From IMG/VR virus record IMGVR_UViG_3300025387_000012, positions 1-64,000 of that record: a stretch of 64,000 nt of DNA. One strand, given 5' to 3'. A model generated the notes under the pieces. That model saw nothing but the letters and a program-made list of their open reading frames with translations, was not told where the DNA came from and did no database searches. The stretch is from a virus (Duplodnaviria > Heunggongvirae > Uroviricota > Caudoviricetes). The position numbers were made by a program, and so were the translations under genes. Position 1 is the stretch's first letter, and each line of letters begins with the position of its first letter. Below are positions 5,731-62,480 of this stretch, piece by piece.

Positions 5731-5749
5731 TGCGTAACTAAAAAGACTG

Positions 5750-5778
5750 TTTACAAACAGCTGGACCCATGGTAATAT
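5750..5778 (+). promoter_or_regulatory. sigma70-like promoter, conserved phage family (TTTACA-N17-TAATAT)
   Basis: CTGTTTACA motif + -10; followed only by terminator 5819-5858. Confidence 0.5.
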
Positions 5779-5818
5779 AATTCTACCATGGTAAGTCTCC
5801 TTTGCAACCATGCCAACT

Positions 5819-5858
5819 AGAGGGGTCTTCTTCGGGAGACCCCTTCTTTTTTGGTTGA
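5819..5858 (+). terminator. rho-independent terminator
   Basis: AGGGGTCT-loop-AGACCCCT stem followed by TTCTTTTTTGG. Confidence 0.7.
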
Positions 5859-5904
5859 CGCCACGGTAAATAGATACATCAAATCAACATAAGGAATAGC
5901 GCGT

Positions 5905-6675
5905 ATGATGGGACTGTCGCTTAGAACCGCAGACGTTCGTAATCTTTTCAAGGCCCTTCTCGCAGAACGCCAGTTCACTTCTGTGAACCGCGAAGGCTCG
6001 ATGACCAACCTGGTTGGCAACACCACCATCGAGATCGTGAATGCATCCTTCATCGCCGACGAACCTTCCATCTTTGGAAAGGTAAACCAGAAATACGTCG
6101 AGCGTGAGGAACAGTGGTACAACTCCATGTCTCTCAACGTAAATGACATCCCAGGTGGACCTCCTCAGATTTGGTCTGCCGTCGCCGATGACAAGGGGTT
6201 CATTAACTCCAACTACGGTTGGTGCATCTACTCCCCACAGAATGGCTTCTCGGCGTACGCCAACGTCGCTGACATTGCGAACAACCCAGACCTCCACAGC
6301 GACTGTCAGTACAACCGCGCTCGTGACGAGCTTCGCAAGAACCCCGAGAGCCGTCGAGCCGTCATGCTCTACACTCGTCCTTCGATGTGGTTGGACTACA
6401 ATCGCAACGGACGTTCTGACTTCATGTGCACCAACGCGGTGCAATATCTGATCCGTCAAGGACAGCTCCACGCGATCGTGCAGATGCGTTCCAACGATGC
6501 AATCTTTGGATTTCGCAACGACAGAGCCTGGCAGCAGCACGTCCTTGAAAAGCTAGCAGCCGATCTGGAAGTTCCAGCCGGAAACCTCTACTGGAATGCT
6601 GGTTCCCTCCACGTTTACGAGCGTCATTACAGCCTCGTTGATCCGGTGGGCTACGGTGAAAGCACTCCAGGCTAA
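5905..6675 (+). CDS. 42: deoxycytidylate 5-hydroxymethyltransferase (dCMP hydroxymethylase, T4 gp42-like; ThyA fold)
   Basis: Strong similarity to T4 gp42 over whole length (IEIVNASFIADEP, INSNYGWCIYS, RPSMW.DYNRNGRSDFMCTNAVQYLIR, MRSNDAIFGFRNDRAWQ, GSLHVYERH). Asp in FRND aligns with ThyA Asn177/T4 dCH Asp179, implying cytosine specificity. Confidence 0.9.
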   Translation: MMGLSLRTADVRNLFKALLAERQFTSVNREGSMTNLVGNTTIEIVNASFIADEPSIFGKVNQKYVEREEQWYNSMSLNVNDIPGGPPQIWSAVADDKGFINSNYGWCIYSPQNGFSAYANVADIANNPDLHSDCQYNRARDELRKNPESRRAVMLYTRPSMWLDYNRNGRSDFMCTNAVQYLIRQGQLHAIVQMRSNDAIFGFRNDRAWQQHVLEKLAADLEVPAGNLYWNAGSLHVYERHYSLVDPVGYGESTPG

Positions 6676-6807
6676 TCCTCAGAGGGTTTGGAGAGAGAAA
6701 ATCCTCAGTCGCGGCGACGAAAATCGCGGCTGAGGAGCATATTTGACTTCTCTTTTCAGGGGAAGCATGATATAATCTTCTTCAGATATACGTTGAGGAG
6801 GACTACT

Positions 6808-7185
6808 ATGAAGCACGTTTATGTTTCTCGCGATGAGCTCAAGCTTTTGCTGTCGCGCCTAGATGATAACGACGCTACGCCTATCGAAAAGAAGGACCTT
6901 TTCGGTGGCAAGTTGGAGACCCTATATCTGACGCGTCGCAACATTCGAGTTCTCCTGTCGAAGCTGGATCGCAAGGCCAATGGCGAGGACACTGTCTGCA
7001 CCATCGTGAAGAACGATACCGTGCACCCTCTCTATCCCTGCAGCGTTCAGCTTTACGTGACGGCGATCGATGATCACACCACGCCTTCTCCTTCTGGCGC
7101 CCGTGTTCATGCCGTCGAGGATGAAGCCTACTACACCGAACGTGATGCAGGTCGCATGCATCCGTCAGACGAGGCAAACGTATGA
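6808..7185 (+). CDS. hypothetical protein
   Basis: ATG with GAGGAGGA RBS; extended -10 TGATATAAT at 6765-6773 upstream; no recognisable domain. Confidence 0.5.
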   Translation: MKHVYVSRDELKLLLSRLDDNDATPIEKKDLFGGKLETLYLTRRNIRVLLSKLDRKANGEDTVCTIVKNDTVHPLYPCSVQLYVTAIDDHTTPSPSGARVHAVEDEAYYTERDAGRMHPSDEANV

Positions 7186-7415
7186 ACAAATTCAACTACG
7201 TCGTAGCGGCTCCTTGGCCTGATGGTGGGGGTTCTCTCTGCGTCTACGCTTACCACGGTCAGGTCCAGTATGGAACCCAAGCTTCAGCTGAGGGCTTTCT
7301 GAAATACGTTCAGGAACAGATCAAGGCTGAAGAGGACAAGGGCAATCGCTATACGTTTGAACCCCGATCTACCGACTACCGCATCTACAAGATCGGGATT
7401 GAACTTGAGCGCTGA
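7182..7415 (+). CDS. hypothetical protein
   Basis: ATGA overlap with upstream stop (translational coupling). Confidence 0.45.
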   Translation: MNKFNYVVAAPWPDGGGSLCVYAYHGQVQYGTQASAEGFLKYVQEQIKAEEDKGNRYTFEPRSTDYRIYKIGIELER

Positions 7416-7659
7416 GGCTCACATTTTTCTGCTGCTTCTCCGGCTTTTCGGCGCGTTCGTCATTGCGATCCTCGCAATGATCTTCTTGCGGATCGCATGG
7501 GACATGCTGCTTCACGGCCCAGAACGCATTCGCGAGTATCAGCGCTGGCGGTACGAACATCGAAACGACATCAACGGCATGTATGTCGACAAGGAGGGCA
7601 AGATCGTCCTCGTGAAAAGGTTTGACGACAAAGTAAATGAAGTACGAAACCCAGATTAA
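7357..7659 (+). CDS. hypothetical small membrane protein (start uncertain)
   Basis: ORF with one predicted TM helix (LFGAFVIAILAMIFLRIAW); overlaps both neighbours, true start probably internal. Confidence 0.3.
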   Translation: MNPDLPTTASTRSGLNLSAEAHIFLLLLRLFGAFVIAILAMIFLRIAWDMLLHGPERIREYQRWRYEHRNDINGMYVDKEGKIVLVKRFDDKVNEVRNPD

Positions 7660-12700: not shown

Positions 12701-12706
12701 GGGCTG

Positions 12707-12735
12707 TTTACTTTTCCAGAGAAGCGTGTTACGAT
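12707..12735 (+). promoter_or_regulatory. promoter, conserved family variant (TTTACT-N17-TACGAT) driving long leader + CofD-like gene
   Basis: GGGCTGTTTACT. Confidence 0.45.
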
Positions 12736-16769: not shown

Positions 16770-16776
16770 TCGGCTG

Positions 16777-16805
16777 TTTACATCCCATTAAAAATGTGAT
16801 ACGAT
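16777..16805 (+). promoter_or_regulatory. promoter, conserved family (TTTACA...TGTGATACGAT)
   Basis: CGGCTGTTTACATCC. Confidence 0.55.
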
Positions 16806-50563: not shown

Positions 50564-50567
50564 GGCA

Positions 50568-51003: not shown

Positions 51004-51029
51004 CTCTCTATCAACTGGAGATAAAAGCT

Positions 51030-51446
51030 ATGATGCAGTCCGGAACCTACTACGTCGGTGATCTCTGCTACGTGTTCGACGATGAACGTTGGACCGATGT
51101 CTGCGACAAGATCATCGTGGGTCACAAGTGCCTTGATGGTGAGTTCACTCTGGACGATGGAACTACCTTCGCGATCTATTCGACGAAGTACGGCGATGGC
51201 CTTTACGAGGACAACTTCGGTCAGCGGATCGCCGTTGACTCTGGATCCATCGGCTGCGTCCTCGTAGATGCGATCGATGCCGACCGTCTGAAGGACATTC
51301 TGAACCGCAATCTGGCGGGCGTCTACACCTTCAAGACCGCGTTTGAGACCGGCTATGAAGATGACAACAACTCGGTCATCTCCTTCGGCAACACGGTCAT
51401 CGTGGATACGGACCCTCAGGAAGAAGACGAGGAGCAAGAGGACTGA
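51030..51446 (+). CDS. hypothetical protein with acidic C-terminal tail
   Basis: Promoter-leader cassette 50976; C-term DTDPQEEDEEQED. Confidence 0.5.
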   Translation: MMQSGTYYVGDLCYVFDDERWTDVCDKIIVGHKCLDGEFTLDDGTTFAIYSTKYGDGLYEDNFGQRIAVDSGSIGCVLVDAIDADRLKDILNRNLAGVYTFKTAFETGYEDDNNSVISFGNTVIVDTDPQEEDEEQED

Positions 51447-51704
51447 GAACCCAGACCCTCATCTTACCGCCCGCGATCTTCGAGGAGTTTGACCATGACA
51501 TCAGGTTCCTCGAAGAGACGCATGGGCTGGTTCGTAAATCAGTCCATCATCAGCCGGGCAATCGCTTCTCTATGAGAGGCGACACCTACACAATCACCTA
51601 CGGTGGGGCAGGGCGCTACAGTTCGTTTCAGAACCAAATGCACGTCCTCTGGGGGCGCATCAACAAAAAGTATCGCTTCACCGCCTGGCGCGGCAAATAA
51701 CCTG

Positions 51705-51732
51705 TTTACATCCTGGTAGAACGGTGTATTAT
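51705..51732 (+). promoter_or_regulatory. promoter + shared leader cassette
   Basis: CCTGTTTACATCCTGGTAGAACGGTGTATTAT. Confidence 0.6.
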
Positions 51733-51755
51733 CACTCTATCAACTGGAGACGGAC

Positions 51756-52016
51756 ATGTTCGACGATCTTGACCACAACGTTTTCCTCGAGTTCGCGAAC
51801 AACCTCGGTCGCGGCTATCTGAAGCTGTGGAAGGCAAGCGGCATCCTCATGACCCTTCGGGACTTTCCTGAGATCGCGAGTGACCCTCAGCGGCTGCGCA
51901 GCTACCTCGACAACTGCCTTCGCATGGAAGGCTTCCTTGACCCGCAGATCGAAGCCTGCGCCATCTTCTTCGAGCAGTGGGTCGACTACAAGACCACGTT
52001 TGGAAAGGTGAGCTAA
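51756..52016 (+). CDS. hypothetical protein
   Basis: Promoter-leader cassette 51705. Confidence 0.45.
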   Translation: MFDDLDHNVFLEFANNLGRGYLKLWKASGILMTLRDFPEIASDPQRLRSYLDNCLRMEGFLDPQIEACAIFFEQWVDYKTTFGKVS

Positions 52017-52186
52017 TGGAACACTTCACGTTTCGATTCCAAGGTGTGAACTTCAACGTCGAGTCGGATCACCACCTCAAGGCTATGTCAGAAGCCAATG
52101 ACTATTTCCGCCCGTTCGGTGGAGCCTGGTTCCGTATCGGCAACACCAACTGCTACGAGTGGCGAGTCGGCAACTTCTTCGATTGA
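52016..52186 (+). CDS. hypothetical small protein
   Basis: TAATGG coupling. Confidence 0.4.
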   Translation: MEHFTFRFQGVNFNVESDHHLKAMSEANDYFRPFGGAWFRIGNTNCYEWRVGNFFD

Positions 52187-52193
52187 GGGAACG

Positions 52194-52484
52194 ATGTCCA
52201 AGATCACCTACACCAACGGCTTCTCGGCGGTGAAGACCCTTCAGAGAGCCGCTGCCGATCCTCGCGTAATCGAGATCGAAGGAAACGGCATGGAGGAAGG
52301 TCGCGTCTTCATCCACCTTCGGCCAGGGTACGTCTTCTCTCTCAGCGAATGTTCCTGCCGTAGCGTAGGCAGCGCTAGAGAGGTTCGTGAAACAATGGCC
52401 TCTATCATGACCAGGGAAGAGTTCGAAAATAGCAGTTTACATCCTGGGCGAACAGTGTATTATCTCTCTATCAACTGGAGATGA
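52194..52484 (+). CDS. hypothetical protein
   Basis: GAGGGAA RBS; 3' end overlaps next promoter cassette. Confidence 0.45.
   Translation: MSKITYTNGFSAVKTLQRAAADPRVIEIEGNGMEEGRVFIHLRPGYVFSLSECSCRSVGSAREVRETMASIMTREEFENSSLHPGRTVYYLSINWR
52437..52464 (+). promoter_or_regulatory. promoter + shared leader cassette (overlaps 3' end of upstream ORF)
   Basis: CAGTTTACATCCTGGGCGAACAGTGTATTAT. Confidence 0.55.
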
Positions 52485-52488
52485 TCCA

Positions 52489-52737
52489 ATGGCCAAGGCA
52501 ATCGCTCTCTTCACCGGTATCGATACCTTCACTCGTCACGTTCACGTAGCGGTTCGTGAGGATGGCCAGCAGTTCTACCGCAACTACGGCAACTACGGCT
52601 TCAACGGCTACAGTAAGGGCTGGATGAAGTGGACTCGGTTGGGAAACCCTGTCACCATCAAGGACGATCACTGCGAGTGGGGGTTCAAGACCCTCAGCAG
52701 AGCTCCTTCGGCGAAAGGCATTAGGCTGCCCGCCTAA
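52489..52737 (+). CDS. hypothetical protein
   Basis: Promoter-leader cassette 52437. Confidence 0.45.
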   Translation: MAKAIALFTGIDTFTRHVHVAVREDGQQFYRNYGNYGFNGYSKGWMKWTRLGNPVTIKDDHCEWGFKTLSRAPSAKGIRLPA

Positions 52738-52745
52738 CTTTCCCT

Positions 52746-52773
52746 GTTTACATCCTGGGGAAACAGTGTAAGA
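52746..52773 (+). promoter_or_regulatory. promoter, conserved family (TAAGAT -10)
   Basis: CCTGTTTACATCCTGGGGAAACAGTGTAAGAT. Confidence 0.6.
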
Positions 52774-52802
52774 TCAGAATAACAGCTAACGAGGGCAGCC
52801 TA

Positions 52803-53003
52803 ATGGAATTTTCGACTCGCAAAGCAGCTCAGAAGTTCCTTGCGGATAAGGGGCTCTTCCTCGCAAACACCAGCCCTTTCTCTGACCAAGATCGAGAGTA
52901 CTGGGCGTTTGGTCAGCCAGGCGAAGGTAAGGATCGGCTCTACGATCACTCCGCTACCGTGACTCGCTGCGGCCGTACCTTCGTTGTATCAACCTTCTTC
53001 TGA
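52803..53003 (+). CDS. hypothetical protein
   Basis: Promoter 52746 upstream. Confidence 0.4.
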   Translation: MEFSTRKAAQKFLADKGLFLANTSPFSDQDREYWAFGQPGEGKDRLYDHSATVTRCGRTFVVSTFF

Positions 53004-53005
53004 GG

Positions 53006-53209
53006 ATGCAGATGCCCGAAGTCGAAACCATCGATCTCGAAATGCCCCGCTCTTGGGAACACTACATGATGACCTGTGATGGTGATCGGTACTCTGAGCG
53101 AGAGTGGCTGAAGATCGAGAAGTTCCTTTACACGAATGACATCGTTTACGGGGTGGAGGTTCTTTCCCGTACAGACGAGACCGTCATGATAAGGTGCCAG
53201 CGCGCATGA
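53006..53209 (+). CDS. hypothetical protein
   Basis: ORF 67 aa. Confidence 0.4.
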   Translation: MQMPEVETIDLEMPRSWEHYMMTCDGDRYSEREWLKIEKFLYTNDIVYGVEVLSRTDETVMIRCQRA

Positions 53210-53424
53210 CCCAGAAGTTCGAGGAAAAGAAGCTCGACACGATCTACGTGGAGGGTTCCCTTAGCTCGCTTATCAGTGACCTGCAGAGTATGCAGAGACG
53301 CTATGGCAAGGAAGGCTATGGCAACCTAACCGTCCGAAGCACGCGTACCTGCGGTCATCCGTTCTACTGCGAGTGCAGTGAGACGCCTACGCTCTTTGGT
53401 ACGAGGGCCGTAAAGGGAGAATAG
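53206..53424 (+). CDS. hypothetical protein
   Basis: ATGA coupling. Confidence 0.4.
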   Translation: MTQKFEEKKLDTIYVEGSLSSLISDLQSMQRRYGKEGYGNLTVRSTRTCGHPFYCECSETPTLFGTRAVKGE

Positions 53425-53452
53425 CTTGACGACGATTAGAGGAAACCTTATC

Positions 53453-53686
53453 ATGAATGTGTGGGTCGTCTACTACCACACGGAAAGTGGGGATGAGGGA
53501 GTCGCTGCGGTCTATAATCGCGAGCCGACAACCGAGGACCTTAACCATGTCTACCGCACCGTGCTCAGCAAGGAGATGGTGGATGAGGACGGGGATGGTG
53601 AGATGGTCAGCTACGCTCATCTCCGCGTCTATCCGTGCAGGGTCGAAACGCCTACTCCCGATCCAGTGCCAGTAAGGACGATATGA
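53453..53686 (+). CDS. hypothetical protein
   Basis: AGAGGAAA RBS. Confidence 0.4.
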   Translation: MNVWVVYYHTESGDEGVAAVYNREPTTEDLNHVYRTVLSKEMVDEDGDGEMVSYAHLRVYPCRVETPTPDPVPVRTI

Positions 53687-53817
53687 TCCTCGTTCTCGCA
53701 ATCATCGGCGGTCTCGCATTAGGAAACTGGCTCCTCGGAGTCGTGCTCGCCGCGATAGGGGTCGGAGAGTACCCCTGGCCGCTAGACGGAATCAGCCGCC
53801 GCAAAAGAGGCTATTGA
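53683..53817 (+). CDS. hypothetical small membrane protein (44 aa)
   Basis: ATGA coupling; single TM. Confidence 0.3.
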   Translation: MILVLAIIGGLALGNWLLGVVLAAIGVGEYPWPLDGISRRKRGY

Positions 53818-53820
53818 CTG

Positions 53821-53848
53821 TTTACATTCCTGCGGTTCGTGGTATAAT
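53821..53848 (+). promoter_or_regulatory. promoter, conserved family (TTTACA-N16-TATAAT; TTGACT just upstream)
   Basis: TTGACTGTTTACATTCCTG...GGTATAAT. Confidence 0.6.
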
Positions 53849-53878
53849 CAGAATACGAACTGCAGCGGAGAACTTTCG

Positions 53879-54031
53879 ATGGCTAACATTCGTCAGATCA
53901 TGAAGCTTCTGAACGTCTCTGAGGAAGCCGCTTTCCGCATCTTCGACAACATGTTCATCGACTTTAGTGAGTGCAGCCCTGCTGAGTTCAAGCGGGCCGC
54001 CACCGAAGCTAAGAAGAAGCTGGGGCTGTAA
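53879..54031 (+). CDS. hypothetical small protein (50 aa)
   Basis: GGAGAA RBS; promoter 53821. Confidence 0.35.
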   Translation: MANIRQIMKLLNVSEEAAFRIFDNMFIDFSECSPAEFKRAATEAKKKLGL

Positions 54032-54204
54032 TGACCAACGCTGAGAAGATCGCTCGCATCACCAAGGCGATTAACGCCATGACCGACTCCTACATCGACG
54101 AGGGTAACGCTGCTCTTGCCGAGAAGTCGAACAAGATGCTCGATGCCGATGATGACACGCTGGTCCAGCTCTACGACCTTATGGAGAGATGGCAGCGTGC
54201 TTAA
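54031..54204 (+). CDS. hypothetical small protein (57 aa)
   Basis: TAATG coupling. Confidence 0.35.
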   Translation: MTNAEKIARITKAINAMTDSYIDEGNAALAEKSNKMLDADDDTLVQLYDLMERWQRA

Positions 54205-54407
54205 GAAGGAACAGTGCATCCCTGGGGCGCTCCTTAAGATAAGGCCGCAGCCGAAGTCTGGCATTCCCGCTATGTACTCTGTCGGCGGTGATCAGAACCT
54301 CCCGTACGTTACGATGACAGAGTCCTCTGGCTCCTGGTTCGACGGTCACTGCGCTATCTATCCAGGTGCGATCGTTACCGTCGTTCGTGGACCTAAGAGA
54401 GTCCGCC

Positions 54408-54653
54408 ATGCCGCCAACACCACCCGTTCGGCCGGATGAGCCGATAGACGAAACCGAATGGATCAGAGGTCTCCGCAATCTTAATCGGTTGATCGAAGAG
54501 AAGTTGCGTGGTCACCGCCTCGTCAATCCACCCGCTGAAGTGGGCGAGGATGAGTTGGCGAAAGTGTTTTGGGATCAGGGAGCGCCCGACCCCAAAGACG
54601 GCGCCCGCGCCCTGCTGGCGAAATACCACATTACGAGGAGGGATGAGGGATGA
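54408..54653 (+). CDS. hypothetical protein (GC-rich segment)
   Basis: ORF; ends with TRRDEG motif repeated in next gene. Confidence 0.35.
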   Translation: MPPTPPVRPDEPIDETEWIRGLRNLNRLIEEKLRGHRLVNPPAEVGEDELAKVFWDQGAPDPKDGARALLAKYHITRRDEG

Positions 54654-54889
54654 GGCGCGATGAAGCAGTCGCAAAAGTCGAAGCAGACGTGGCGTGGAAA
54701 CTTTGGAAGCGCCTTTGCGAGACCGACCAAACACTTGCTGATTTGGCTGCGATTACTGGCAAAAGCGTAGCGGCTTTGGAATGGCTATTTTTGAATCCCG
54801 GCAGCGCGCTAGTGGGCGAAATCGGTCAAGTGTTTGGGGCCATGAATTGCCATGTCATCCCAACTTTTACGAGGAGGAATGAGGGATGA
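54650..54889 (+). CDS. hypothetical protein (GC-rich segment)
   Basis: ORF ending TRRNEG; duplicated junction. Confidence 0.4.
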   Translation: MRRDEAVAKVEADVAWKLWKRLCETDQTLADLAAITGKSVAALEWLFLNPGSALVGEIGQVFGAMNCHVIPTFTRRNEG

Positions 54890-55209
54890 GTGAGGTTGAT
54901 GACATCGTCGCCCGCATAGAGCGCCACGCTGAGGTTGGCTTCAGTCTTTGCAAGATCGAAGACACGCTCGCGATCATCACCGCCCTCCGTGCCGCACAGG
55001 CGCGGGAGCACCGGTTGCTGAGTGCGCTGACGCCGAGCGTGGAGACCAAGGCCGCTTACATAGGCGAGTTCAAATTTCCCTTCTGCATCAAGGATGAATT
55101 TGGCGACGACATGAAATTCACGCCGAACGTTCCGTGGGACACCATCAAGGAAATCATGGCTGCGATCCGCGCCCAAGCCCTTCAGGAGACCACCAATGCA
55201 CCGGAGTAG
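54886..55209 (+). CDS. hypothetical protein (GC-rich segment)
   Basis: ORF 107 aa. Confidence 0.45.
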   Translation: MSEVDDIVARIERHAEVGFSLCKIEDTLAIITALRAAQAREHRLLSALTPSVETKAAYIGEFKFPFCIKDEFGDDMKFTPNVPWDTIKEIMAAIRAQALQETTNAPE

Positions 55210-55666
55210 GGAAGAGTGGGCGGCGCGCGTTCGAAACGATTGGGTTGAAATTCCCGAATTGCTCGCCGCTGAAGACATCGCTGAACTCCACGCCCAGCTA
55301 GAAGCCGCACAGGCCGAGAACGAGCGCCTAAGCCAGTGCCTGACCTACGAGCAGCACCTTGCAGGCCGGGAGGGCACACACGGCCCTGACTGCCACCTGT
55401 GGGGGCCGAGGCATTACGAGTGCCTGAAGGCGCGCGTGGCGGAGTTGGCGGACGATGTGGAATTTTGGAAGCAGCGTTACTGGGAGGGTTGCGACCGGCG
55501 GAAGATTGACGAACCGGCGTTCCAAGAGCTGTTCAGCCGCGCCGAGGTTAATGCGGGTTACTCCGAGGATGACGAGAACGACGCCATCATCGGGCGTATG
55601 TTTATCAAACAACGTCACGCGCTCGCCGCCGCTGTTCTCCGCCACCAACTACAGGGAGGCCAGTGA
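55196..55666 (+). CDS. hypothetical coiled-coil protein (GC-rich segment)
   Basis: LHAQLEAAQAENERL motif shared with 58324 gene. Confidence 0.45.
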   Translation: MHRSREEWAARVRNDWVEIPELLAAEDIAELHAQLEAAQAENERLSQCLTYEQHLAGREGTHGPDCHLWGPRHYECLKARVAELADDVEFWKQRYWEGCDRRKIDEPAFQELFSRAEVNAGYSEDDENDAIIGRMFIKQRHALAAAVLRHQLQGGQ

Positions 55667-55831
55667 TGGCCTCCGCCGAGCGCGTGACCGTCGTGCAATC
55701 TCGCGTTCAATGGCCTCGCGAATCAGGTCGGTGCGGTCTTCATTCTCGCCAAGCACGGCGTCGATCTTGGCCCGCGTTCCGTCTGTCAACCGCAGCAGGA
55801 TCGTCTCGGCGTATAATTTTGGTCGGCCCAT
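55649..55831 (-). CDS. ribbon-helix-helix (CopG/Arc-like) transcriptional regulator
   Basis: MGRPKLYAETILLRLTDGTRAKIDAV...LIREAIEREIARR: beta-strand + two helices typical of RHH; only minus-strand gene in region; palindromic operator just upstream. Confidence 0.5.
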   Translation of the reverse strand: MGRPKLYAETILLRLTDGTRAKIDAVLGENEDRTDLIREAIEREIARRSRARRRPSLASL

Positions 55832-55846
55832 TTCGCATATCCGTTA

Positions 55847-55877
55847 TTGACACTGCGTCAGTGTATAGCGTATACAC
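55847..55877 (+). promoter_or_regulatory. canonical TTGACA-N18-TATACA promoter overlapped by perfect palindrome GTGTATAgcgTATACAC (candidate RHH operator)
   Basis: Inverted repeat 55861-55877 in divergent intergenic region between RHH gene (-) and 55903 gene (+). Confidence 0.5.
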
Positions 55878-55902
55878 GTTTCATGGACAAGGGAGGACGG
55901 AA

Positions 55903-56283
55903 ATGACCGCCATCGCCAATCTGATCTATTCGCAAACGCTTCTTTACCCGCAGGGCTACATAAGCGTTCGGCTTCAAGATGCCAAATACCGCAAAGCCCT
56001 GAAGCACCTCGGCGGCGGCTGGCGCGCCCCTATTCACGGGTGCTGGGTTTTTGCCGCCGACGATGGGACGCCGCTTGCGCAAGTCCGCACCCTTGGACAC
56101 CAGCTTCCGAAAAAGGACCGACGCTACGCGCTGCGCGTTCATGGTGTTTTGTTTACCCGGATGCAGCCGTTGGTCAGCACCAAGCGCCCGATCAATAGTG
56201 AAGTTGCGTCTTACCTGACGCCGAAAGAAGCAATGCAAGCCGGGTCGAAACTGATCGCGGACCTTCGGAAGGGAGACCAGTGA
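55903..56283 (+). CDS. hypothetical protein (divergent from RHH gene)
   Basis: AAGGGAGGA RBS before ATG 55903; upstream part of ORF-track frame looks non-coding. Confidence 0.45.
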   Translation: MTAIANLIYSQTLLYPQGYISVRLQDAKYRKALKHLGGGWRAPIHGCWVFAADDGTPLAQVRTLGHQLPKKDRRYALRVHGVLFTRMQPLVSTKRPINSEVASYLTPKEAMQAGSKLIADLRKGDQ

Positions 56284-57113
56284 TGGACCTGCGTGAAGAG
56301 ATATCGAAGGTCATGGGTGTCGTTGCCGCTGACGGCGCTCAAGCCGGATACGCCACTGAAGTTGTCATGGCCCTCATCGCCAAGGCGGGTGAGCCGGTGG
56401 CCGCACCTACTCAACGCTCAGACGGTGTTAGTCAACGCTCTGAAGGGTCTGTCGAGCCGGTGGCGTGGCGTGATGACCTCGACTGGCACGGTCAGTTCAG
56501 CCTGCACGACCCCGACCCGTCCGATGACCATTCGGCGCTCTATCTCGTCATGCCCAACGGTTTGATGGTTAACATCAGTTGCGACCCCCGCGAAGGCTTG
56601 GACGTTAAGCGCGGCAACTGGCTGGTGTCGGTGCTCAATGCGGGGTTGCTGTCTTCCGAACAGGCCACACAGGCGCGGGAAACTGTCCTCTCTGACACCG
56701 TGCGACGGATGGATGCGTGGCGAAAACAGTGCGCCGAACATGAGGCAACTATTCGCGCCTTACAAACGCGCGTAGCTGAACTGGTGGCCCTTACCGCCCC
56801 CGCCGCACCCACCCTTGACGCTGAGGCGGTGGCGCGGGTGATTGCTCCTTGGCCGTTCAAAATGGTCGAGGAAAGCATTGCAGACGGCATGTCGTGGGCA
56901 GGCATGTGTGTTCACTATCAGCACGCCATGTATCTGATCCAATCCGCCTACAGCACGGCCCACCAGATCATCGCCATGCAGGCCGCGCCGGTCGGGCCGG
57001 TGACGGAAACTGAAACTTCCCGAGCATGGACAATTGCGCTCGACGGATTGAATGGAAAGCTCGGCATGGAAGCCGCCCTTGAGGACTTCCTGAAGCGGAG
57101 GGGCGGAGCATGA
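56280..57113 (+). CDS. hypothetical protein (GC-rich segment)
   Basis: 277-aa ORF. Confidence 0.45.
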   Translation: MMDLREEISKVMGVVAADGAQAGYATEVVMALIAKAGEPVAAPTQRSDGVSQRSEGSVEPVAWRDDLDWHGQFSLHDPDPSDDHSALYLVMPNGLMVNISCDPREGLDVKRGNWLVSVLNAGLLSSEQATQARETVLSDTVRRMDAWRKQCAEHEATIRALQTRVAELVALTAPAAPTLDAEAVARVIAPWPFKMVEESIADGMSWAGMCVHYQHAMYLIQSAYSTAHQIIAMQAAPVGPVTETETSRAWTIALDGLNGKLGMEAALEDFLKRRGGA

Positions 57114-57337
57114 GCCAGCGAGAACAGATTGCTCGGATCATTGATCCCTTTGCGTTCGTATTGGCCGATGACGATTTGAATTGGCAAGTATCGCGTTAGC
57201 CGAAGCGGCTTTTGAACACAAAGGACCTTTTGAACAGGTCAGAGCCGCCCTTATTGCCGCAATGGAGAGTAAATAATACCTCACTGTGGATTTTCTTGAA
57301 AATCCAGTGCCATTGCCGCTAAAGCCTGGAGGTCAAA

Positions 57338-57613
57338 ATGATTATTTCAAGTTTTATTGGGGGATTGGTAGGTGGATTCTTTGCTAGTATTTTAACCGCC
57401 CATCGATATAAACAAAAAATTCGGCACATTCACGAACAACTAGAATCAAAGCTTTTGACATTTTCTTTTAAGAGCTCAAATGAAAGTTCTTCAACAACCA
57501 TCAAATCGCACGTGATAGCATGTGCTGAAACTGGGGAAGGTGTTCGAATAGAGATACCTATAAGCGATATTATGACGCTTCAAAAGCGCATGAACGCGCC
57601 GTCATGGCAATAG
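57338..57613 (+). CDS. hypothetical membrane protein (AT-rich segment)
   Basis: N-terminal TM MIISSFIGGLVGGFFASILTA. Confidence 0.35.
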   Translation: MIISSFIGGLVGGFFASILTAHRYKQKIRHIHEQLESKLLTFSFKSSNESSSTTIKSHVIACAETGEGVRIEIPISDIMTLQKRMNAPSWQ

Positions 57614-57638
57614 AAACAATCATTAGCTAAAATTCATG

Positions 57639-57666
57639 TTTACATCCTGGCCGTTCTGTGTAAAAT
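57639..57666 (+). promoter_or_regulatory. promoter, conserved family (TTTACA-N16-TAAAAT)
   Basis: CATGTTTACATCCTGGCCG. Confidence 0.55.
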
Positions 57667-57691
57667 TAGAAAATCAGAACGAGGGATAAAG

Positions 57692-58264
57692 ATGATCGAG
57701 ACAAAAGCCGCTACCTCTCTCCTTATTGGGGTTTCAGTTGCATCGCTGGGAATAATTTGCCAGATATCAAACATGCTGTCTGATTACCAAACTCGTCCCG
57801 CTATCCAGTTTTACCATCCATCTTTGCCAGCATCTCCAAAAATTCCTCTGCAGAACGTTGAAACTCCTCAGGATATTGCCAACAGATCAATCAAATGTCT
57901 AGCAGAAGATGTTTACTATGAGGCGAGAGGTGAACCAGAACGTGGGCAGATAGCAGCCGCATATGTCGTTATGAATAGAGTTCAAAACGAACTCGGAGGA
58001 GATGTTTGCCGAACCATCTGGAAAAGTCATCAATTTTCATGGACCGATAACATTCATCGTCCTGAGATCAATGATATGACTGCCTGGCAAAAGGCGTACT
58101 CCGTAGCCTCTAAAGTGTATCGACTTAGGGTAAATGATCCAACTAATGGTGCAGACCATTATCTAAACAAGGCCAAGGTTCATACTCTCCCCAAATGGGT
58201 GAAAAAGGGAAAAAATATCGTTAAGATAGCTAATCACACATTTATGCAGCTCATGACCCACTAG
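57692..58264 (+). CDS. SleB-type cell-wall hydrolase (Hydrolase_2 family) with N-terminal signal/TM
   Basis: IKCLAEDVYYEARGEPERGQIAAAYVVMNRV matches SleB family core (CLAxxxYxEARGE...AVAxVVxNR). Confidence 0.6.
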   Translation: MIETKAATSLLIGVSVASLGIICQISNMLSDYQTRPAIQFYHPSLPASPKIPLQNVETPQDIANRSIKCLAEDVYYEARGEPERGQIAAAYVVMNRVQNELGGDVCRTIWKSHQFSWTDNIHRPEINDMTAWQKAYSVASKVYRLRVNDPTNGADHYLNKAKVHTLPKWVKKGKNIVKIANHTFMQLMTH

Positions 58265-58267
58265 CTG

Positions 58268-58295
58268 TTTACAATCCTGCGGTTTATGATAGAAT
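58268..58295 (+). promoter_or_regulatory. promoter, conserved family (TTTACA-N16-TAGAAT)
   Basis: GCTGTTTACAATCCTG. Confidence 0.45.
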
Positions 58296-58323
58296 AAAAT
58301 CATATCAAAAAGGAGGTACAACA

Positions 58324-58665
58324 ATGAACCGGACTAATGAGTGGATCAAGACGCTGAACCTTGAAGACGCGAAACAAACTGCTGATCTGATCGCCTCCCT
58401 TCATGCCCAGCTAGAAGCTGCACAGGCGCGCGTTTCAGAATTGGAAGCGGAAAAGGCGCGCTGGGATGGGAACGATTTTCTGTCAGCTACATGCATAGGC
58501 CTTCTAAATGGTGAGCTTGTTTCTTCTCTAGACAAAAATGATGTCCTTAAAGAGGCTCTAGAGTTTGCTGCTTTAGAATTAGAAAGTTCGGCTGAAGTGC
58601 ATAAATGTGAGGTATGCCGAAACGCTTCAATTTATATTGACGGAATTCTCGAAAATAACAAGTAA
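58324..58665 (+). CDS. hypothetical coiled-coil protein
   Basis: AAAGGAGG RBS; LHAQLEAAQARVSELEAEKARW. Confidence 0.45.
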   Translation: MNRTNEWIKTLNLEDAKQTADLIASLHAQLEAAQARVSELEAEKARWDGNDFLSATCIGLLNGELVSSLDKNDVLKEALEFAALELESSAEVHKCEVCRNASIYIDGILENNK

Positions 58666-58668
58666 AAT

Positions 58669-58699
58669 AAAGCGTGGGCGGAATAATTCCGCCCACGCT
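58669..58699. terminator. 12-bp perfect hairpin (AAGCGTGGGCGG/CCGCCCACGCTT), possible bidirectional terminator
   Basis: A-tract upstream / no U-tract downstream on + strand; U-tract on minus strand. Confidence 0.45.
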
Positions 58700-58987
58700 T
58701 AAGGATTTAATCCCAAAAAACGGATCAGCTTTTGTCTGTTTTCGGCAAATCAAGAGGAAATTAGAACATGTATGAACATGATGTCATCATCGCTCTAGTA
58801 ATTTACTGTGTTGTTCAGTCGATTTTAATCAATTCGCAAAAAAAATTAATTGAAAAGCAATCTGTTTTAATTAAGGGCTTAAAGGAAATCTTAAACGAGT
58901 GAAGAGTTTGTCTGGGACAGATAGAAAGTGATCCGTTGCTGATTATCTGAGGCGTAAATACCAGCGGATGTTCTTGGAGAAAATCTA

Positions 58988-59185
58988 ATGGCAGTACCAT
59001 ATTATCAGGTTCTGGTGGTCATCGAGTTCAACGGTCAGGTTGCGACAACCTCAATGGGCTTCAACAACGAGCGGGATGCCGAGACCGCGATTGAACAGGT
59101 AACGACCAAGAAGCCAGACAGCCGCTGGCCAACGATCACGGTCAGAAGAGCCTACGTGCCTTCATGGGAACTTCCCAACAATTAA
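58988..59185 (+). CDS. hypothetical small protein
   Basis: GGAGAAAA RBS. Confidence 0.4.
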   Translation: MAVPYYQVLVVIEFNGQVATTSMGFNNERDAETAIEQVTTKKPDSRWPTITVRRAYVPSWELPNN

Positions 59186-59358
59186 GAAATGAGCAAACGT
59201 AAATGTTGCCCCGCGACCACTTTCTCAAAAACTTTGTCCCACCACCTCCCCCTCCGCCCCCAAAGAGGAGGCCTGCAGTAGCATTTTTCACATTAATAGG
59301 AATCCTCTTCATAGCGGTTACCGTGTTGTGTGGACTCCTCGATATGATGGGTATCTAA

Positions 59359-59697
59359 ATGCAGGAGTTTTGCGAAACGCTGAAGAAATCCGGGCAGCTT
59401 CACAACGACATCCAGGCTGAAGCCGAGCAGAAGGTTCTGGATCGCCTCGCGAAGAACAAGGCGTACCGTGATCGCGAAGATCGTCTCTCTAAAAACTGGC
59501 TCTACGTGATCTTCCTTCTGCCGGGCCCGGCCCAGTACATCGACACCATCACTGACGACATCAAGTGCGAGGGACTCCTTCGTGATCTCGGATGGTCGCA
59601 GGATCGAATCGACAAGCTCATGCAAAACAGATACACACTAGGAGAAAATAATGCAGGTAGTTCCAAGCGTCGTCTTCAAGACCCGCGTTCGCGATGA
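59359..59697 (+). CDS. hypothetical protein
   Basis: ORF 112 aa; 3' end overlaps peroxiredoxin gene. Confidence 0.4.
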   Translation: MQEFCETLKKSGQLHNDIQAEAEQKVLDRLAKNKAYRDREDRLSKNWLYVIFLLPGPAQYIDTITDDIKCEGLLRDLGWSQDRIDKLMQNRYTLGENNAGSSKRRLQDPRSR

Positions 59698-60175
59698 ATT
59701 CATTGGTGGACCGAATCCTTTCCGTTGGCAGGACGTTACGTCCTTTGATCTCTTCGGTGGCAAGCGCGTCGTTCTCTTCTCGTTGCCCGGAGCGTTCACG
59801 CCAACCTGCTCGACAATGCAGCTTCCCGGTTTTGAAAAGAACTATGACGAGTTCAAGAAGCTCGACATCGACGAAATCTACTGCATCAGCGTCAACGACA
59901 GCTTCGTCATGAATGCCTGGGCAAAGTCGCAGAACCTCGAGCATGTCAAGGTCATTCCTGATGGCTCAGGCCGCTTTACCGATGGGATGGGCATGCTGGT
60001 CGACAGGGACAATCTCGGCTTCGGTCGCCGTAGCTGGCGCTATGCCGCGGTGGTCGACAACGGCGCTATCGAGATGCTCACTGAAGAGCCAGGCCGCTGC
60101 GACAACTGCGAGACCGATCCCTATGGCGCGACAGCACCAGACGCGATCCTCGAATATCTGAGGACTCCTCGCTAA
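59651..60175 (+). CDS. peroxiredoxin (Prx5-type, AhpC/TSA fold)
   Basis: LPGAFTPTCS peroxidatic-Cys motif of Prx5/PrxD subfamily; GGAGAAAA RBS. Confidence 0.7.
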   Translation: MQVVPSVVFKTRVRDEFIGGPNPFRWQDVTSFDLFGGKRVVLFSLPGAFTPTCSTMQLPGFEKNYDEFKKLDIDEIYCISVNDSFVMNAWAKSQNLEHVKVIPDGSGRFTDGMGMLVDRDNLGFGRRSWRYAAVVDNGAIEMLTEEPGRCDNCETDPYGATAPDAILEYLRTPR

Positions 60176-60199
60176 GGAATAAAGCCATAACGGGGGCTA

Positions 60200-60227
60200 T
60201 TTACATCCTGGGAAAACAGGGTAAGAT
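60200..60227 (+). promoter_or_regulatory. promoter, conserved family (TAAGAT -10)
   Basis: CTATTTACATCCTGGGAAAACAGGGTAAGAT. Confidence 0.55.
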
Positions 60228-60253
60228 CATAATATCAACAGGGAGTGTTTGCA

Positions 60254-60457
60254 ATGACCCTTGAAGAAATTATTGATGAAGCTCACGAGGACATGGAAAC
60301 TGCCATGGAAACCTGGGCTACCTGCGATGAAGATTTTGCCGAAGCGGCAAGCTTCATCTGTGAGACATCGGTTTCTTCCTACGGTCGCCAAATCTCCTGG
60401 CGCTGGAGCAACTGGGGCGGTGTTGAGTTTTTCGCAGCTGAACAGGAAGTCGCGTAG
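60254..60457 (+). CDS. hypothetical acidic small protein
   Basis: GGGAG RBS; promoter 60200. Confidence 0.4.
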   Translation: MTLEEIIDEAHEDMETAMETWATCDEDFAEAASFICETSVSSYGRQISWRWSNWGGVEFFAAEQEVA

Positions 60458-60459
60458 CT

Positions 60460-60630
60460 ATGAAGTACGAAAATAAGGGGGAGCAGCCCGTGTCTAACAA
60501 GACTCGGGTGGTTGTCTACCTCAGAGGCTGGGTTGGGAATGGTCCCGCTCGGTGGGAAGGGTTCGCCAAGGATGTCGATTGGCAAATCCTTGGCGAGGAT
60601 CAAGACATCCTTTGGTGGGATTACGCCTAA
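60460..60630 (+). CDS. hypothetical small protein (56 aa)
   Basis: More protein-like than overlapping track ORF 60512..60700. Confidence 0.3.
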   Translation: MKYENKGEQPVSNKTRVVVYLRGWVGNGPARWEGFAKDVDWQILGEDQDILWWDYA

Positions 60631-60696
60631 AGCTTTCCCGGTCGGCCGCCATGAAAAGGCCGACAGCGCCTACAACGAACTCGTAAGGGAAAACCG

Positions 60697-60999
60697 ATGA
60701 AGCGTTATCCGCACGTTAACTATGAGCGCATGAAGCGACCTGTCGCGATTACAACGTTGACATATGATCTCGAGGGATCAGTCGAGGGCGCGATTGAGAC
60801 GCTTCAGCGGTACCAGAAGGAATACCCTGGCTGCACGCTCTCCTATGAGGACGTCGCTGACTCGTATTCACCAGAACGAATGGGTCTCGTCCTCTACGCG
60901 AATGTGGACGAGACCGATACCGAGATGGCGGCTCGCATCCACGGTGAAGAGCGCGAGCGCAAAGAGTTTGAACGCCTCAGGGAGAAATACGGCAAATGA
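60697..60999 (+). CDS. hypothetical protein
   Basis: ORF 100 aa. Confidence 0.45.
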   Translation: MKRYPHVNYERMKRPVAITTLTYDLEGSVEGAIETLQRYQKEYPGCTLSYEDVADSYSPERMGLVLYANVDETDTEMAARIHGEERERKEFERLREKYGK

Positions 61000-61157
61000 T
61001 CGTTTACGTCCTCCTCGTTTTCATCGCGTGGAACAACCCGATCAAGGTTGACAACATCGCGTCACTCCAGGAGTGCCAGCGGCTTGGAGCGCAGATCGGC
61101 GGCATGGACCGGGGCGGATACGAGTACAAGTGCTTCGCGGTTCAAAAAGCGCGATGA
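60996..61157 (+). CDS. hypothetical small membrane protein (53 aa)
   Basis: ATGA coupling. Confidence 0.3.
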   Translation: MIVYVLLVFIAWNNPIKVDNIASLQECQRLGAQIGGMDRGGYEYKCFAVQKAR

Positions 61158-61363
61158 GGTGGAAAGAATGGGACATCTCTGACTTCCTCGGCCGTCCCTG
61201 GTGGCTGCAGGTGAAGATGCGGTTCTGCCTTCATCGCTACGTCGAGCATGAGGAAAACAGCGCGAAGCGGAAGTGCGAGAAGTGCGGACGCGTCGAATGG
61301 CTCTTTAGCAATCCGTATCCGAGGATTGGGGAACCGAAGTACTTCTGGAAAGAGATGTTTTAA
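61154..61363 (+). CDS. hypothetical small protein with CxxC pair
   Basis: ATGA coupling; KCEKCG. Confidence 0.35.
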   Translation: MRWKEWDISDFLGRPWWLQVKMRFCLHRYVEHEENSAKRKCEKCGRVEWLFSNPYPRIGEPKYFWKEMF

Positions 61364-61420
61364 CGGTGTACTTTCCGCTGAACGCGTGTTAAGATGCTTT
61401 ATTAGAAGAAGGAAAACCCG

Positions 61421-61717
61421 ATGAACCGCAATCCTACCTATGACAAAGTCCGCGTCGGCGATCAGTTCGTCTCCTCGCTCTCTAACTTCAAGGGCAAGGG
61501 CTGGTACCACGTTTCTACCGTGGTCAAGATGGAAGAGCCTTCTCCGCGATACAAGCCGATGCCCGAATCGGTTCTCGCCGGTCTCAAGAAGCCCATTCCC
61601 CAACGCGATGTTCCCATGGACCGCGTCGTTTATGTCGATATTAGGACCTCCACCGGTATCTTCGTCGATCGCGCGAAGCGCATGTGGGTCAGCCAGCTTC
61701 TCGAAGGAAAAATCTGA
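61421..61717 (+). CDS. hypothetical protein
   Basis: ORF 98 aa. Confidence 0.45.
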   Translation: MNRNPTYDKVRVGDQFVSSLSNFKGKGWYHVSTVVKMEEPSPRYKPMPESVLAGLKKPIPQRDVPMDRVVYVDIRTSTGIFVDRAKRMWVSQLLEGKI

Positions 61718-61992
61718 TGGCGGAAATGACTGCAATCGAGATCGAATGCGACTCGTGCAAGGGCACAGGTCTCTACGTTGGGTTCATGGAAGGTAAAGGC
61801 CAAGCCGTTATCTGCGTGAACTGCCGCGGTAGTGGCGGACGCTGGCTCCACTACATTCCCTTCACAGGGCGGAAGAAGCGAGAAGGCATCGAGCGCATCC
61901 GCAGTGGTACTGGGATGATCATCGACCAACCGACTGAAGGTTCGTGGATGACATATGCAAAGTTCGAGGAACTGATCCCCCTCAAAAACTAA
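61717..61992 (+). CDS. small DnaJ-type zinc-finger protein (CxxCxGxG x2)
   Basis: CDSCKGTG and CVNCRGSG repeats; AAGGAAA RBS; TGATG coupling. Confidence 0.45.
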   Translation: MAEMTAIEIECDSCKGTGLYVGFMEGKGQAVICVNCRGSGGRWLHYIPFTGRKKREGIERIRSGTGMIIDQPTEGSWMTYAKFEELIPLKN

Positions 61993-62023
61993 TTCCCTCG
62001 AAAAACTAATTCCTCTTTTCCTG

Positions 62024-62051
62024 TTTACAACCTGGTGGAACAGTGTAAGAT
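62024..62051 (+). promoter_or_regulatory. promoter + shared leader cassette
   Basis: CCTGTTTACAACCTGGTGGAACAGTGTAAGAT...TATCAACTGGAGCTG. Confidence 0.6.
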
Positions 62052-62076
62052 CATTATATCAACTGGAGCTGATACG

Positions 62077-62325
62077 ATGACCAATGAACAACACCTCCAC
62101 AGCTACATTGAAAGCCGGAACGCTCTGGCCCACTTCTTCCGCGGTCAGCGCGTCTTCGATGCGAATGACCTTTCCTACTGGGACATCACCGCGCTCCTCG
62201 AGTGCATCGAGTGCGATCTCTCCCCTGAAAATCTCTGCTGCGACGGTGAACTCCGCGGTCGCGCTCTTCAACAGAAGCAAGCCCGCCTTCTTGGTGCCAA
62301 GGCGGCTCTTGAGGCTCGCGTCTAA
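62077..62325 (+). CDS. hypothetical protein
   Basis: Promoter-leader cassette 62024. Confidence 0.4.
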   Translation: MTNEQHLHSYIESRNALAHFFRGQRVFDANDLSYWDITALLECIECDLSPENLCCDGELRGRALQQKQARLLGAKAALEARV

Positions 62326-62447
62326 TGGAACCGTGGCTCATTCTGATCGGCATCCTCGCTGCGGTCTACGTGACCACTATCATGATTTGCTCTCGATGGG
62401 CCAGGCCTCACATCGTCAAGTTCTTCGACTGGCTTGATCGTAAATGA
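62325..62447 (+). CDS. hypothetical small membrane protein (40 aa)
   Basis: TAATG coupling. Confidence 0.3.
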   Translation: MEPWLILIGILAAVYVTTIMICSRWARPHIVKFFDWLDRK

Positions 62448-62452
62448 TCCGT

Positions 62453-62480
62453 TTACATCGCTCGAAAAGCGGTGTATAAT
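62453..62480 (+). promoter_or_regulatory. promoter, conserved family (TTTACA-N16-TATAAT)
   Basis: CCGTTTACATCGCTCG...GGTGTATAAT. Confidence 0.55.

Follow-up and report, generated by a model that had tools for sequence, protein, structure and literature searches.

Recurrent T4-type early promoters in an uncultivated jumbo phage, probably read by the host polymerase and carried as portable cassettes

The DNA analyzed here (the window) is a stretch of 64,000 nt, positions 1 to 64,000 of the tailed-phage record IMGVR_UViG_3300025387_000012, corresponding to about 82.8-146.8 kb of ENA contig ERZ27271998 k141_59194 (285,248 bp). Its genes, as called by a codon-usage model, lie nearly all on the + strand, and the gaps between them contain many copies of a promoter motif, which is the subject of this report. 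The gene content is T4-like, with gp39/gp52-type topoisomerase II, a homolog of T4 beta-glucosyltransferase, a thymidylate-synthase-family protein, several homing endonucleases (GIY-YIG, HNH and NUMOD3) and late-type TATAAATA motifs. No tRNA genes or Rfam families were found in the window. A megablast search of 49-54 kb against 50,697 phage records gave no match; none of its close relatives has been sequenced. Ralstonia phage RsoM2USA and Xanthomonas phages BUDD and X1 are named as the nearest cultured relatives on one protein, the topoisomerase II medium subunit, which has 48-50% amino acid identity to theirs. Relatives in IMG/VR (63-75% identity) are on contigs of up to 368 kb.

How many copies of the motif are there, and on which strand? 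The initial annotation had put the number at 24 or more, all facing the + strand, and had suggested a motif search as a check. Run over the window, such a search confirmed both enrichment and strand bias relative to shuffled sequence. With up to two mismatches, CTGTTTACATCCTG has 17 matches, 16 on the + strand and one on the - strand, against a mean of 0.35 and a maximum of 2 in 100 dinucleotide shuffles. A looser scan for TTTACA (up to one mismatch)-N16-18-TAnnnT found 26 sites on the + strand and four weak ones on the - strand, and a position weight matrix of two 9-nt blocks (-38 to -30 and -15 to -7, threshold 16 bits) found 24 and none, respectively. We retained 25 copies (Table 1). Each is intergenic, as had been claimed, and faces a + strand ORF; the -10 box ends a median of 26 nt before the start codon (22-38 nt in 19 of the 25). 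The 15 coordinates first given as examples all fall within 1-2 nt of these sites, and the span first given, 5745-62480, opens with the first site, whose CTG is at 5747, and closes with the last one's -10 box (62475-62480).

Table 1. Promoter copies and the hyperplastic block in the window
Feature	Position	Strand	Remarks
Promoter copy	5747..5778	+	CTG-TTTACA-N17-TAATAT; CCATGG/CCATGG dyad around -10 box; hairpin z -2.2; next gene from 5905
Weaker promoter copy	12704..12735	+	CTG-TTTACT-N17-TACGAT; 231 nt 5' of gene 12967-14877
Promoter copy, 17-nt-spacer class	16774..16805	+	CTGTTTACATCC...TGTGA-TACGAT; start 16830 with AGGAGG SD
Promoter copy	21754..21784	+	CTG-TGTACA-N16-TATTAT; downstream of terminator-like hairpin (-23.3 kcal/mol); ATG 6 nt past -10 box
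Promoter copy	23041..23071	+	Exact 14-mer; -10 box TATAAT
Promoter copy, 16-nt-spacer family	24554..24584	+	Exact 14-mer; leader CTATCAA
Promoter copy	36296..36327	+	CTG-TTTACA-N17-TACGAT; ATG 6 nt past -10 box
Promoter copy, 17-nt-spacer class	38374..38405	+	Within divergent intergenic region
Promoter copy	39762..39793	+	Exact 14-mer; 5' of gp39-like topoisomerase II large subunit gene; identical in relative L141
Promoter copy	43286..43317	+	GTG-TGTACA-N17-TATAAT; 5' of gp52-like topoisomerase gene; orthologous promoter at same place in L141, similar promoter directly 5' of the gene in L123
Weaker promoter copy	47679..47710	+	TAG-TTTACT-N17-TATAGT
Promoter copy	47981..48012	+	CTGTTTACATTCGG...TGTGA-TACAGT; ATG 6 nt past -10 box
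Promoter copy	49025..49056	+	CTG-TGTACA-N17-TATTAT; spacer with CAGGTT
Promoter copy	49353..49383	+	Exact 14-mer; CAGAATAACAG leader sub-family; 92% over 50 nt to copy in unrelated contig L008
Promoter copy	50214..50244	+	Exact 14-mer; ATAGTG/CACTAT dyad flanking -10 box
Promoter copy	50973..51003	+	Exact 14-mer; one partner in junction contig L154
Promoter copy	51702..51732	+	Exact 14-mer
Promoter copy	52433..52463	+	CAG instead of CTG; other partner in junction contig L154
Promoter copy	52744..52774	+	Exact 14-mer
Promoter copy	53818..53848	+	-10 box in loop of 12-15 bp hairpin; -19.1 kcal/mol, z -4.4, 0/200 shuffles as stable
Promoter copy	57636..57666	+	5' of low-GC3 cell-wall hydrolase gene; CGTTCTG/CAGAACG dyad around -10 box; z -2.5
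Promoter copy	58265..58295	+	5' of low-GC3 ORF 58324-58665; hairpin z -2.05
Promoter copy	60197..60227	+	CTA instead of CTG; orthologous copy in L164, spacer diverged
Promoter copy	62021..62051	+	ACCTGG variant; orthologous copy in L164
Promoter copy	62449..62480	+	CCG-TTTACA-N17-TATAAT; orthologous copy in L164
Hyperplastic block	44700..62974	+	About 60 small ORFs between topoisomerase medium subunit and DnaJ-like genes

The promoter unit covers about 60 bp, from -42 to +22. Its elements are, in order, an A/T-rich stretch, CTG, TTTACA, (T/A)CCTG, the spacer, GTG/TGn, TAnnAT, A-T-C-A around the expected start, and a short leader with a GGAG-type Shine-Dalgarno (SD) sequence followed by the ATG. 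Upstream of the -35 box, C-38 and T-37 are each present at 22 of the 25 sites and G-36 at 24. Four positions of the box are invariant (T-35, T-33, A-32 and C-31); T-34 occurs at 22 sites, the other three having G, and A-30 at 23. The extension that follows has T-29 at 20 sites, C-28 at 16 and C-27 at 22, frequently with TG next, so that positions -35 to -25 read TTTACATCCTG. T-12, A-11 and T-7 of the -10 box are likewise invariant and are preceded by G or T at -15 (24/25) and at -14 (25/25), and the start position is A in 20/25. Among the sites listed within 44-64 kb, the two hexamers match the sigma70 consensus at 9-11 of 12 positions ("sigma70" meaning, throughout, the primary sigma factor of the host). 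The region from -45 to -40 is A/T-rich but mixed (A-45 and A-44, 14/25; T-42, 15/25; T-41, 12/25) and could serve as the UP-like element that had been proposed.

The spacer is 16 nt long at 13 sites and 17 nt at 12. The 16-nt family reads CTGTTTACATCCTGg.cGAACaGTG-TAaGAT-cacTaTATCAACTGGAGA, predominates in the small-ORF region at 49-62 kb, and has two leader sub-families, ...TATCAACTGGAGA and ...CAGAATAACAG. The 17-nt family, gGCTGTTTACAtcc...tGTGA-TACGAT, mostly fronts larger genes (the Band-7 operon, the Metallophos gene, an HD-domain gene and the gp39-like topoisomerase subunit). Only the latter family bears out the extended -10 element of the initial annotation, since it carries a canonical TGn; in the 16-nt family T is at -14 and G at -13, and because GTG abuts the -10 hexamer the TG register is non-canonical, shifted by one base relative to that of E. 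coli.

Some individual copies have further features. The -35 box is the palindrome TGTACA at 21754-21779 and 49025-49051, and also in contigs L122, L128, L136, L138 and L141; it usually has CCTG upstream and CAGG(TT) downstream, which makes an inverted repeat with the -35 box in its loop. CAGGTT recurs, at variable distance, in the spacers of many relatives. Two tandem units of a direct repeat, AAAAACTAATTCC(C/T)TC, lie at 61984-62017, directly 5' of the 62024 copy. Three copies (21784-21793, 36327-36336 and 48012-48021) have a candidate leaderless geometry, the ATG being so close to the -10 box that transcripts would start at or beside the start codon. No SD sequence was found at 21791 and 36334, the two of these starts scored by the gene model; both starts are supported by Pfam domains, GIY-YIG beginning at residue 10 of the first ORF and Metallophos at residue 6 of the second.

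The initial annotation had proposed a phage-specific promoter class. Is the motif new? In T4-like early promoters GTTTAC forms the -35 box (-36 to -31); the sequence 5' of -12 is rich in GT, and that at -40 to -44 is rich in A (Nolan et al., PMC1524935). T4 early promoters are of the UP/-35/TGn/-10 type with extra consensus regions (Hinton, PMC2988021), and the T4/PST consensus is TTTACW-N17-TAYWAT (Comeau et al., PMC4122927). As a reference set, sites of the form GTTTACW-N16-18-TAnnnT were extracted from 115 kb of T4 (NC_000866), giving 30 on the early-gene strand and one on the opposite strand. The two phages share G-36, TTTAC at -35 to -31, W at -30 and -29, T-15/G-14 (GT-rich/TGn) before TAnnAT, and A-T-C-A at 0 to +3, and in both there are many near-identical, gene-oriented copies before small ORFs and replication genes. 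The likeness reaches the start region: a T4 sub-family TACTAT-acaac-TATCAAC and the main family of the window, TATTAT-cactc-TATCAAC, have the same 7-mer in the same register. TATCAAC (or TATCGGC) begins at the sixth base past the -10 hexamer in the most repeated sub-families of both phages (T4 27079, 53942, 55383, 146874 and 163672; window 50976, 51705 and 52436), and may reflect either convergence on a favored initial transcribed sequence or common descent.

There are also differences from T4. The window has C-38, T-37, C-28 and C-27, whereas T4 has T/C at -38 and shows no preference at -37 and -27; it is T-rich at -42/-41, where T4 is A-rich from -44 to -40 (A-40 27/30, A-44 22/30); and its main family has a 16-nt spacer with TG shifted by one base, whereas 29 of the 30 T4 sites have a 17-nt spacer. 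The phage itself has 52% GC and is only distantly related (its helicase has 26-28% amino acid identity to the best phage records). That said, a GTTTAC(A/T) -35 region, a GT-rich/TGn stretch before TAnnnT, and position and orientation before small ORFs are what defines T4-type early promoters at the sequence level, and the elements belong to this type, with a lineage-specific flavor; their early timing and their polymerase would follow from the likeness. The class is thus a known one (PMC1524935, PMC2988021, PMC4122927, and the T4 sites examined here) and not new. The promoter annotations of Pseudomonas phage pf16 were uninformative for comparison.

Conservation well beyond the hexamers had also been claimed, and this claim holds. 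Five orthologous promoter pairs, from the relatives L141 and L164 (76-90% DNA identity), were used for a substitution test. Substitutions were found at 1/60 positions in the hexamers (2%), 5/55 in the extension (9%) and 64/263 in the spacer and flanks (24%); against the flanks, Fisher's test gives p = 9e-6 (hexamers) and p = 0.011 (extension). For instance, the 60200 copy and its ortholog at L164:6909 both keep TTTACATCCTG and TAAGAT while the remaining spacer is almost wholly replaced. Fourteen sites in other contigs, chosen on the two 9-nt blocks alone, are biased at unscored positions too (T-42 13/14, T-41 11/14, W-29 14/14, C-28 10/14, C-27 12/14, Y-17 14/14); among their contigs, L008 and L035 are not independent lineages and may belong to the same genome, because this phage occurs in their samples. 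Related contigs have the same promoter style on the gene strand (25 vs 1 in the matrix scan). In more distant relatives (C/G)TG-T(T/G)TAC and GTG-TAtAAT are kept, and TCCTG is replaced by CAGG(TT) at variable spacer positions. A scan of IMG/VR for the exact 14-mer gave at least 119 stretches, nearly all with lone chance matches; among the matches listed, several copies occur only in L008 (identical to L115), L070 and L035. Since the extension is under purifying selection in the orthologous pairs, spread alone cannot account for it, and both function and recent copying appear to contribute to the extra conservation. The clade-specific extra bases are functionally constrained, and most likely tune polymerase binding or promoter strength.

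We consider it probable that these are promoters from which host sigma70 RNA polymerase transcribes the early genes of an uncultivated jumbo phage, and that they are carried as portable cassettes in front of unrelated genes. The early-type character proposed in the initial annotation, with host sigma70 polymerase as the simplest reader, is supported to that extent. Unmodified host holoenzyme would bind the near-consensus sites straight after DNA entry, and the sites would outcompete host promoters for polymerase. Short operons of small host-takeover genes, together with some replication genes, would then be transcribed much as early genes are in T4, each unit acting as a portable promoter-plus-leader cassette and the units being concentrated in the hyperplastic region. 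Several points weigh against this. Timing and start sites, like polymerase use and strength, are deduced from sequence. With its 16-nt spacer and a GTG that abuts the hexamer, the main family departs from the TGn register canonical in E. coli. At -38/-37 and -28/-27 the selected bases differ from T4 and are not known to contact sigma70. Finally, of the 285-kb contig, 84 kb were covered by the inspection for transcription factors.

Could the near-identity of the copies come mainly from recombination? Recombination-mediated spread was one of the two explanations first offered, and it would make the units mobile cassettes, homogenized by exchange and shuffling their flanking genes, with excision as small circles as one possible route. 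Much in the gene neighborhood is consistent with it. Modules of 46-64 nt at 78-94% identity (blastn) stand before genes that are not paralogs; duplication of genes as the source of the repeats was rejected on the grounds that all-against-all blastp found no similarity among the ORFs downstream of the copies. The 18.3-kb hyperplastic block holds 15 of the 25 copies (0.82 per kb vs 0.22 per kb elsewhere) and is missing from the relative L138 (topoisomerase 81% amino acid identity), in which the gap between the topoisomerase and DnaJ-like genes is only 545 nt. In L138 the DnaJ-like gene is followed by cpYpsA, thymidylate synthase and others, collinear with the window and its downstream flank. Another relative, L164 (DnaJ-like protein 88% identical), has only the right 3 kb of the block in common and, further left, other small genes whose promoters are of that style too. 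An insert in L141 that the window lacks contains two copies, one of them directly 5' of an inserted gene. Genes of foreign composition at 57.3-58.7 kb bear native promoters, and the same leader sub-families stand beside unrelated genes in L008, which has nothing else in common with the window. No copies were found in the 10 kb of core genes past the right end of the window.

This organization recalls that of PeSLs, units of a sigma70-like early promoter, stem-loop, SD sequence and start codon that are conserved over up to about 100 bp, lie beside ORFans in hyperplastic regions and recombine with one another, the stem-loop being mostly situated between the two boxes or in overlap with the -10 box (PMC2839356, PMC4122927). 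Like the PeSL cassettes of RB49/phi1, PST/T4 and nt-1/KVP40, the copies in the window combine promoter, SD sequence and start codon over tens of bp, cluster next to ORFans in a hyperplastic region and precede unrelated genes; where stem-loops are present, they enclose the -10 box, a common PeSL arrangement. The difference is that stem-loops are significant at just 4 of the 25 sites (53821, z -4.4; 57639, -2.5; 5750, -2.2; 58268, -2.05) and not at the other 21, and that there is no G-run/C-run stem motif. The units may therefore work much as PeSLs do, having the promoter, the SD sequence, the hyperplastic setting and the conservation, and the stem-loop in part.

The most direct sign of exchange is one contig from a sister sample, L154 (ENA ERZ27271939 k141_91543, 788 nt), in which window positions 52218-52482 are joined to 51023-51545. 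Its promoter is chimeric, the left part coming from the 52436 copy and the right part from the 50976 copy, with the crossover inside a 28-nt identical stretch that runs from just 5' of the -10 box through the SD sequence, approximately where crossovers of PeSL mini-circles were mapped. L154 may stem from excision, as a circle, of the 1.46-kb segment between the two copies or from its tandem duplication, or it may be an assembly chimera; a low-coverage de Bruijn chimera could, as we infer, arise through the 28-nt exact repeat. Against recombination, the 10 other contigs checked from the block all run collinear with the window, and no indel relative to L141 and L164 has a promoter copy at each of its ends. 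There is no enrichment of upstream hairpins: the 55 nt upstream of the copies fold at a mean of -11.0 kcal/mol vs -12.0 for controls (p = 0.88), and strong hairpins are found only at 21757 and 50217. Moreover, the purifying selection on the extension means that function, and not homogenization only, maintains it. Recombination as the main source of the near-identity is thus possible, though we would not call it probable; as a contributor to the spread of the units it is plausible, given the unrelated genes behind near-identical modules, and its direct support is the single junction contig.

Some other roles for the sequences near the promoters were considered and rejected. A general terminator upstream of each promoter does not fit the fold energies just given, nor are terminator-like sites enriched (16 vs 19.6 expected). 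TCCTG as an anti-SD sequence that masks the SD in read-through RNA would pair over just 3-4 bp (TCC with GGA).

A phage co-factor was the other explanation first offered for the conservation. The extended motif (T-42/-41, CTG, WCCTG) would then be a recognition surface for a phage-supplied factor, which may be an injected Alt-like polymerase modifier, a sigma-appropriation activator of the MotA/AsiA type or an early shut-off repressor. T4 offers a precedent, in that certain early promoters are favored by Alt-modified polymerase, and how early transcription is shut off there has still to be explained (PMC2988021). It is in keeping with such a factor that the extension is conserved where spacers and leaders are unrelated, as the counts at W-29, C-27 and T-42 in the 14 sites illustrate, that it changes more slowly than the flanks in the orthologous pairs, and that it differs from T4 at the same positions. 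The lack of an established sigma70 contact for the selected bases, and their difference from T4, leave room for a factor of this kind. That said, with both boxes near consensus no helper is needed, and nothing found here requires one: among the called genes of contig positions 73-157 kb (the 84 kb mentioned above) there are no RNA polymerase, sigma, AsiA, MotA or ADP-ribosyltransferase domains. That the more distant relatives have another spacer element, CAGG(TT), whose position varies, also speaks against such a factor. We regard a phage factor as unlikely. T4 middle promoters, which depend on MotA and AsiA, resemble the motif in having a conserved element from -35 to about -25, a sigma70 -10 box and often an extended -10; their MotA box, (a/t)(a/t)TGCTT(t/c)a centered at -30, takes the place of the -35 element (PMC2988021), whereas the window keeps a good -35 hexamer and has no TGCTT at -35 to -25. 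Identity with middle promoters was rejected for this reason and for the absence of MotA and AsiA domains from the 84 kb.

It is very improbable that a phage RNA polymerase or sigma factor has its promoter in the motif (polymerases of their own are encoded by many jumbo phages; PMC8504454) or that the motif is an operator, an iteron or another protein-binding repeat without promoter function (dyad arms of 6 bp or more surround the -10 box at 5 sites vs about 0.5 expected from cross-pairing), since both hexamers are sigma70-like, correctly spaced and at a fixed distance from SD and ATG, since no polymerase or sigma domain was seen in the 84 kb and RsoM2USA, the nearest cultured relative by topoisomerase, is reported to lack polymerase genes (PMC8504454), and since dyad sequences that differ between copies argue against one operator protein. 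Promoters of the jumbo-phage or N4 polymerase type were rejected because of the sigma70-like hexamers and the absence of a polymerase domain from the 84 kb, and a single operator at every copy because arms of 5 bp or more are found at 9/25 sites only and differ in sequence.

A more speculative possibility, which we think doubtful, is a second layer of control made up of the selected extra bases (T-42/-41, C-38/T-37, W-29/C-28/C-27) and the hairpins whose loop holds the -10 box, together with an ancient cassette. If so, an injected or early phage protein would mark phage promoters as those to be used in preference or to be shut off early, or alternatively read-through transcripts would be attenuated; and the TATCAAC of T4 and this phage would be the trace of an ancient, exchangeable early-promoter cassette across the T4-like supergroup.

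Some neighboring genes deserve mention. The genes of foreign composition in the block are three (57338-58665) with GC3 of 0.34-0.40 vs about 0.65 elsewhere; one encodes a SleB-type cell-wall hydrolase, and two have native-style early promoters. They are followed by a terminator with a perfect 14-bp palindromic stem (58670-58700), and no counterpart was found in the 9.8 kb upstream of the DnaJ-like gene in L164. Only three copies of the T4 late-promoter word TATAAATA are present in the window, at 20003-20010 (+), 42554-42561 (-) and 48847-48854 (-), each just 5' of a low-GC3 gene. Two of these genes are a NUMOD3 endonuclease gene (20038-20847) and a GIY-YIG-like gene (48188-48814); the third (41778-42527) is a 249-aa - strand ORF with no Pfam hit, in a region unmatched in L141. 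GGATAAATA is also found near 18455 and 25300. In T4, homing endonucleases show late-type expression, and the placement of TATAAATA suggests that the same would be true here.

An 11-kb run of tightly packed or overlapping genes (25421-36294) has no internal promoter copy and several internal paralog pairs. It encodes nucleotidyltransferase/APH, shikimate-dehydrogenase-like, GatZ/KbaZ-like, mannose-6-P-isomerase-like and DUF6071 proteins and, together with the CofD-like, IspD-like, guanylate kinase, beta-glucosyltransferase and thymidylate-synthase-family genes at 5.9-16.8 kb, may specify a sugar-nucleotide or DNA hypermodification pathway. The only large - strand gene, at 509-4717, is divergent from the + strand genes; its 1402-aa product has no Pfam hit and its GC2 is unusual (0.59). 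To the left of the window (L145 14243-24027, contig 73.3-83.3 kb) are homologs of PrkA, DUF444 and SpoVR, a trio of the bacterial yeaG-yeaH-ycgB type, as well as a bactofilin, a DHFR and a Ro60/TROVE-vWA protein, all unusual cargo for a phage.

The promoter reading of the motif is thus right and its class already known. What is new is its occurrence in an uncultivated jumbo phage lineage far from T4, with a selected, clade-specific extension and a likeness to T4 that goes down to the start region. The early regulon that the motif likely marks comprises some 25 transcription units, mostly short operons whose small ORFs have no known function; such ORFs are where host-takeover and anti-defense proteins usually come from. 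The 18-kb hyperplastic region is also delimited by the motif. T4 early-promoter grammar and a PeSL-like organization are thereby extended to a jumbo lineage whose proteins are 26-50% identical to those of cultured phages, which suggests that this way of transcribing predates the Straboviridae and has a wider distribution than they do. The selected bases offer a definite point from which to ask what, beyond the hexamers, would let phage early promoters win polymerase.

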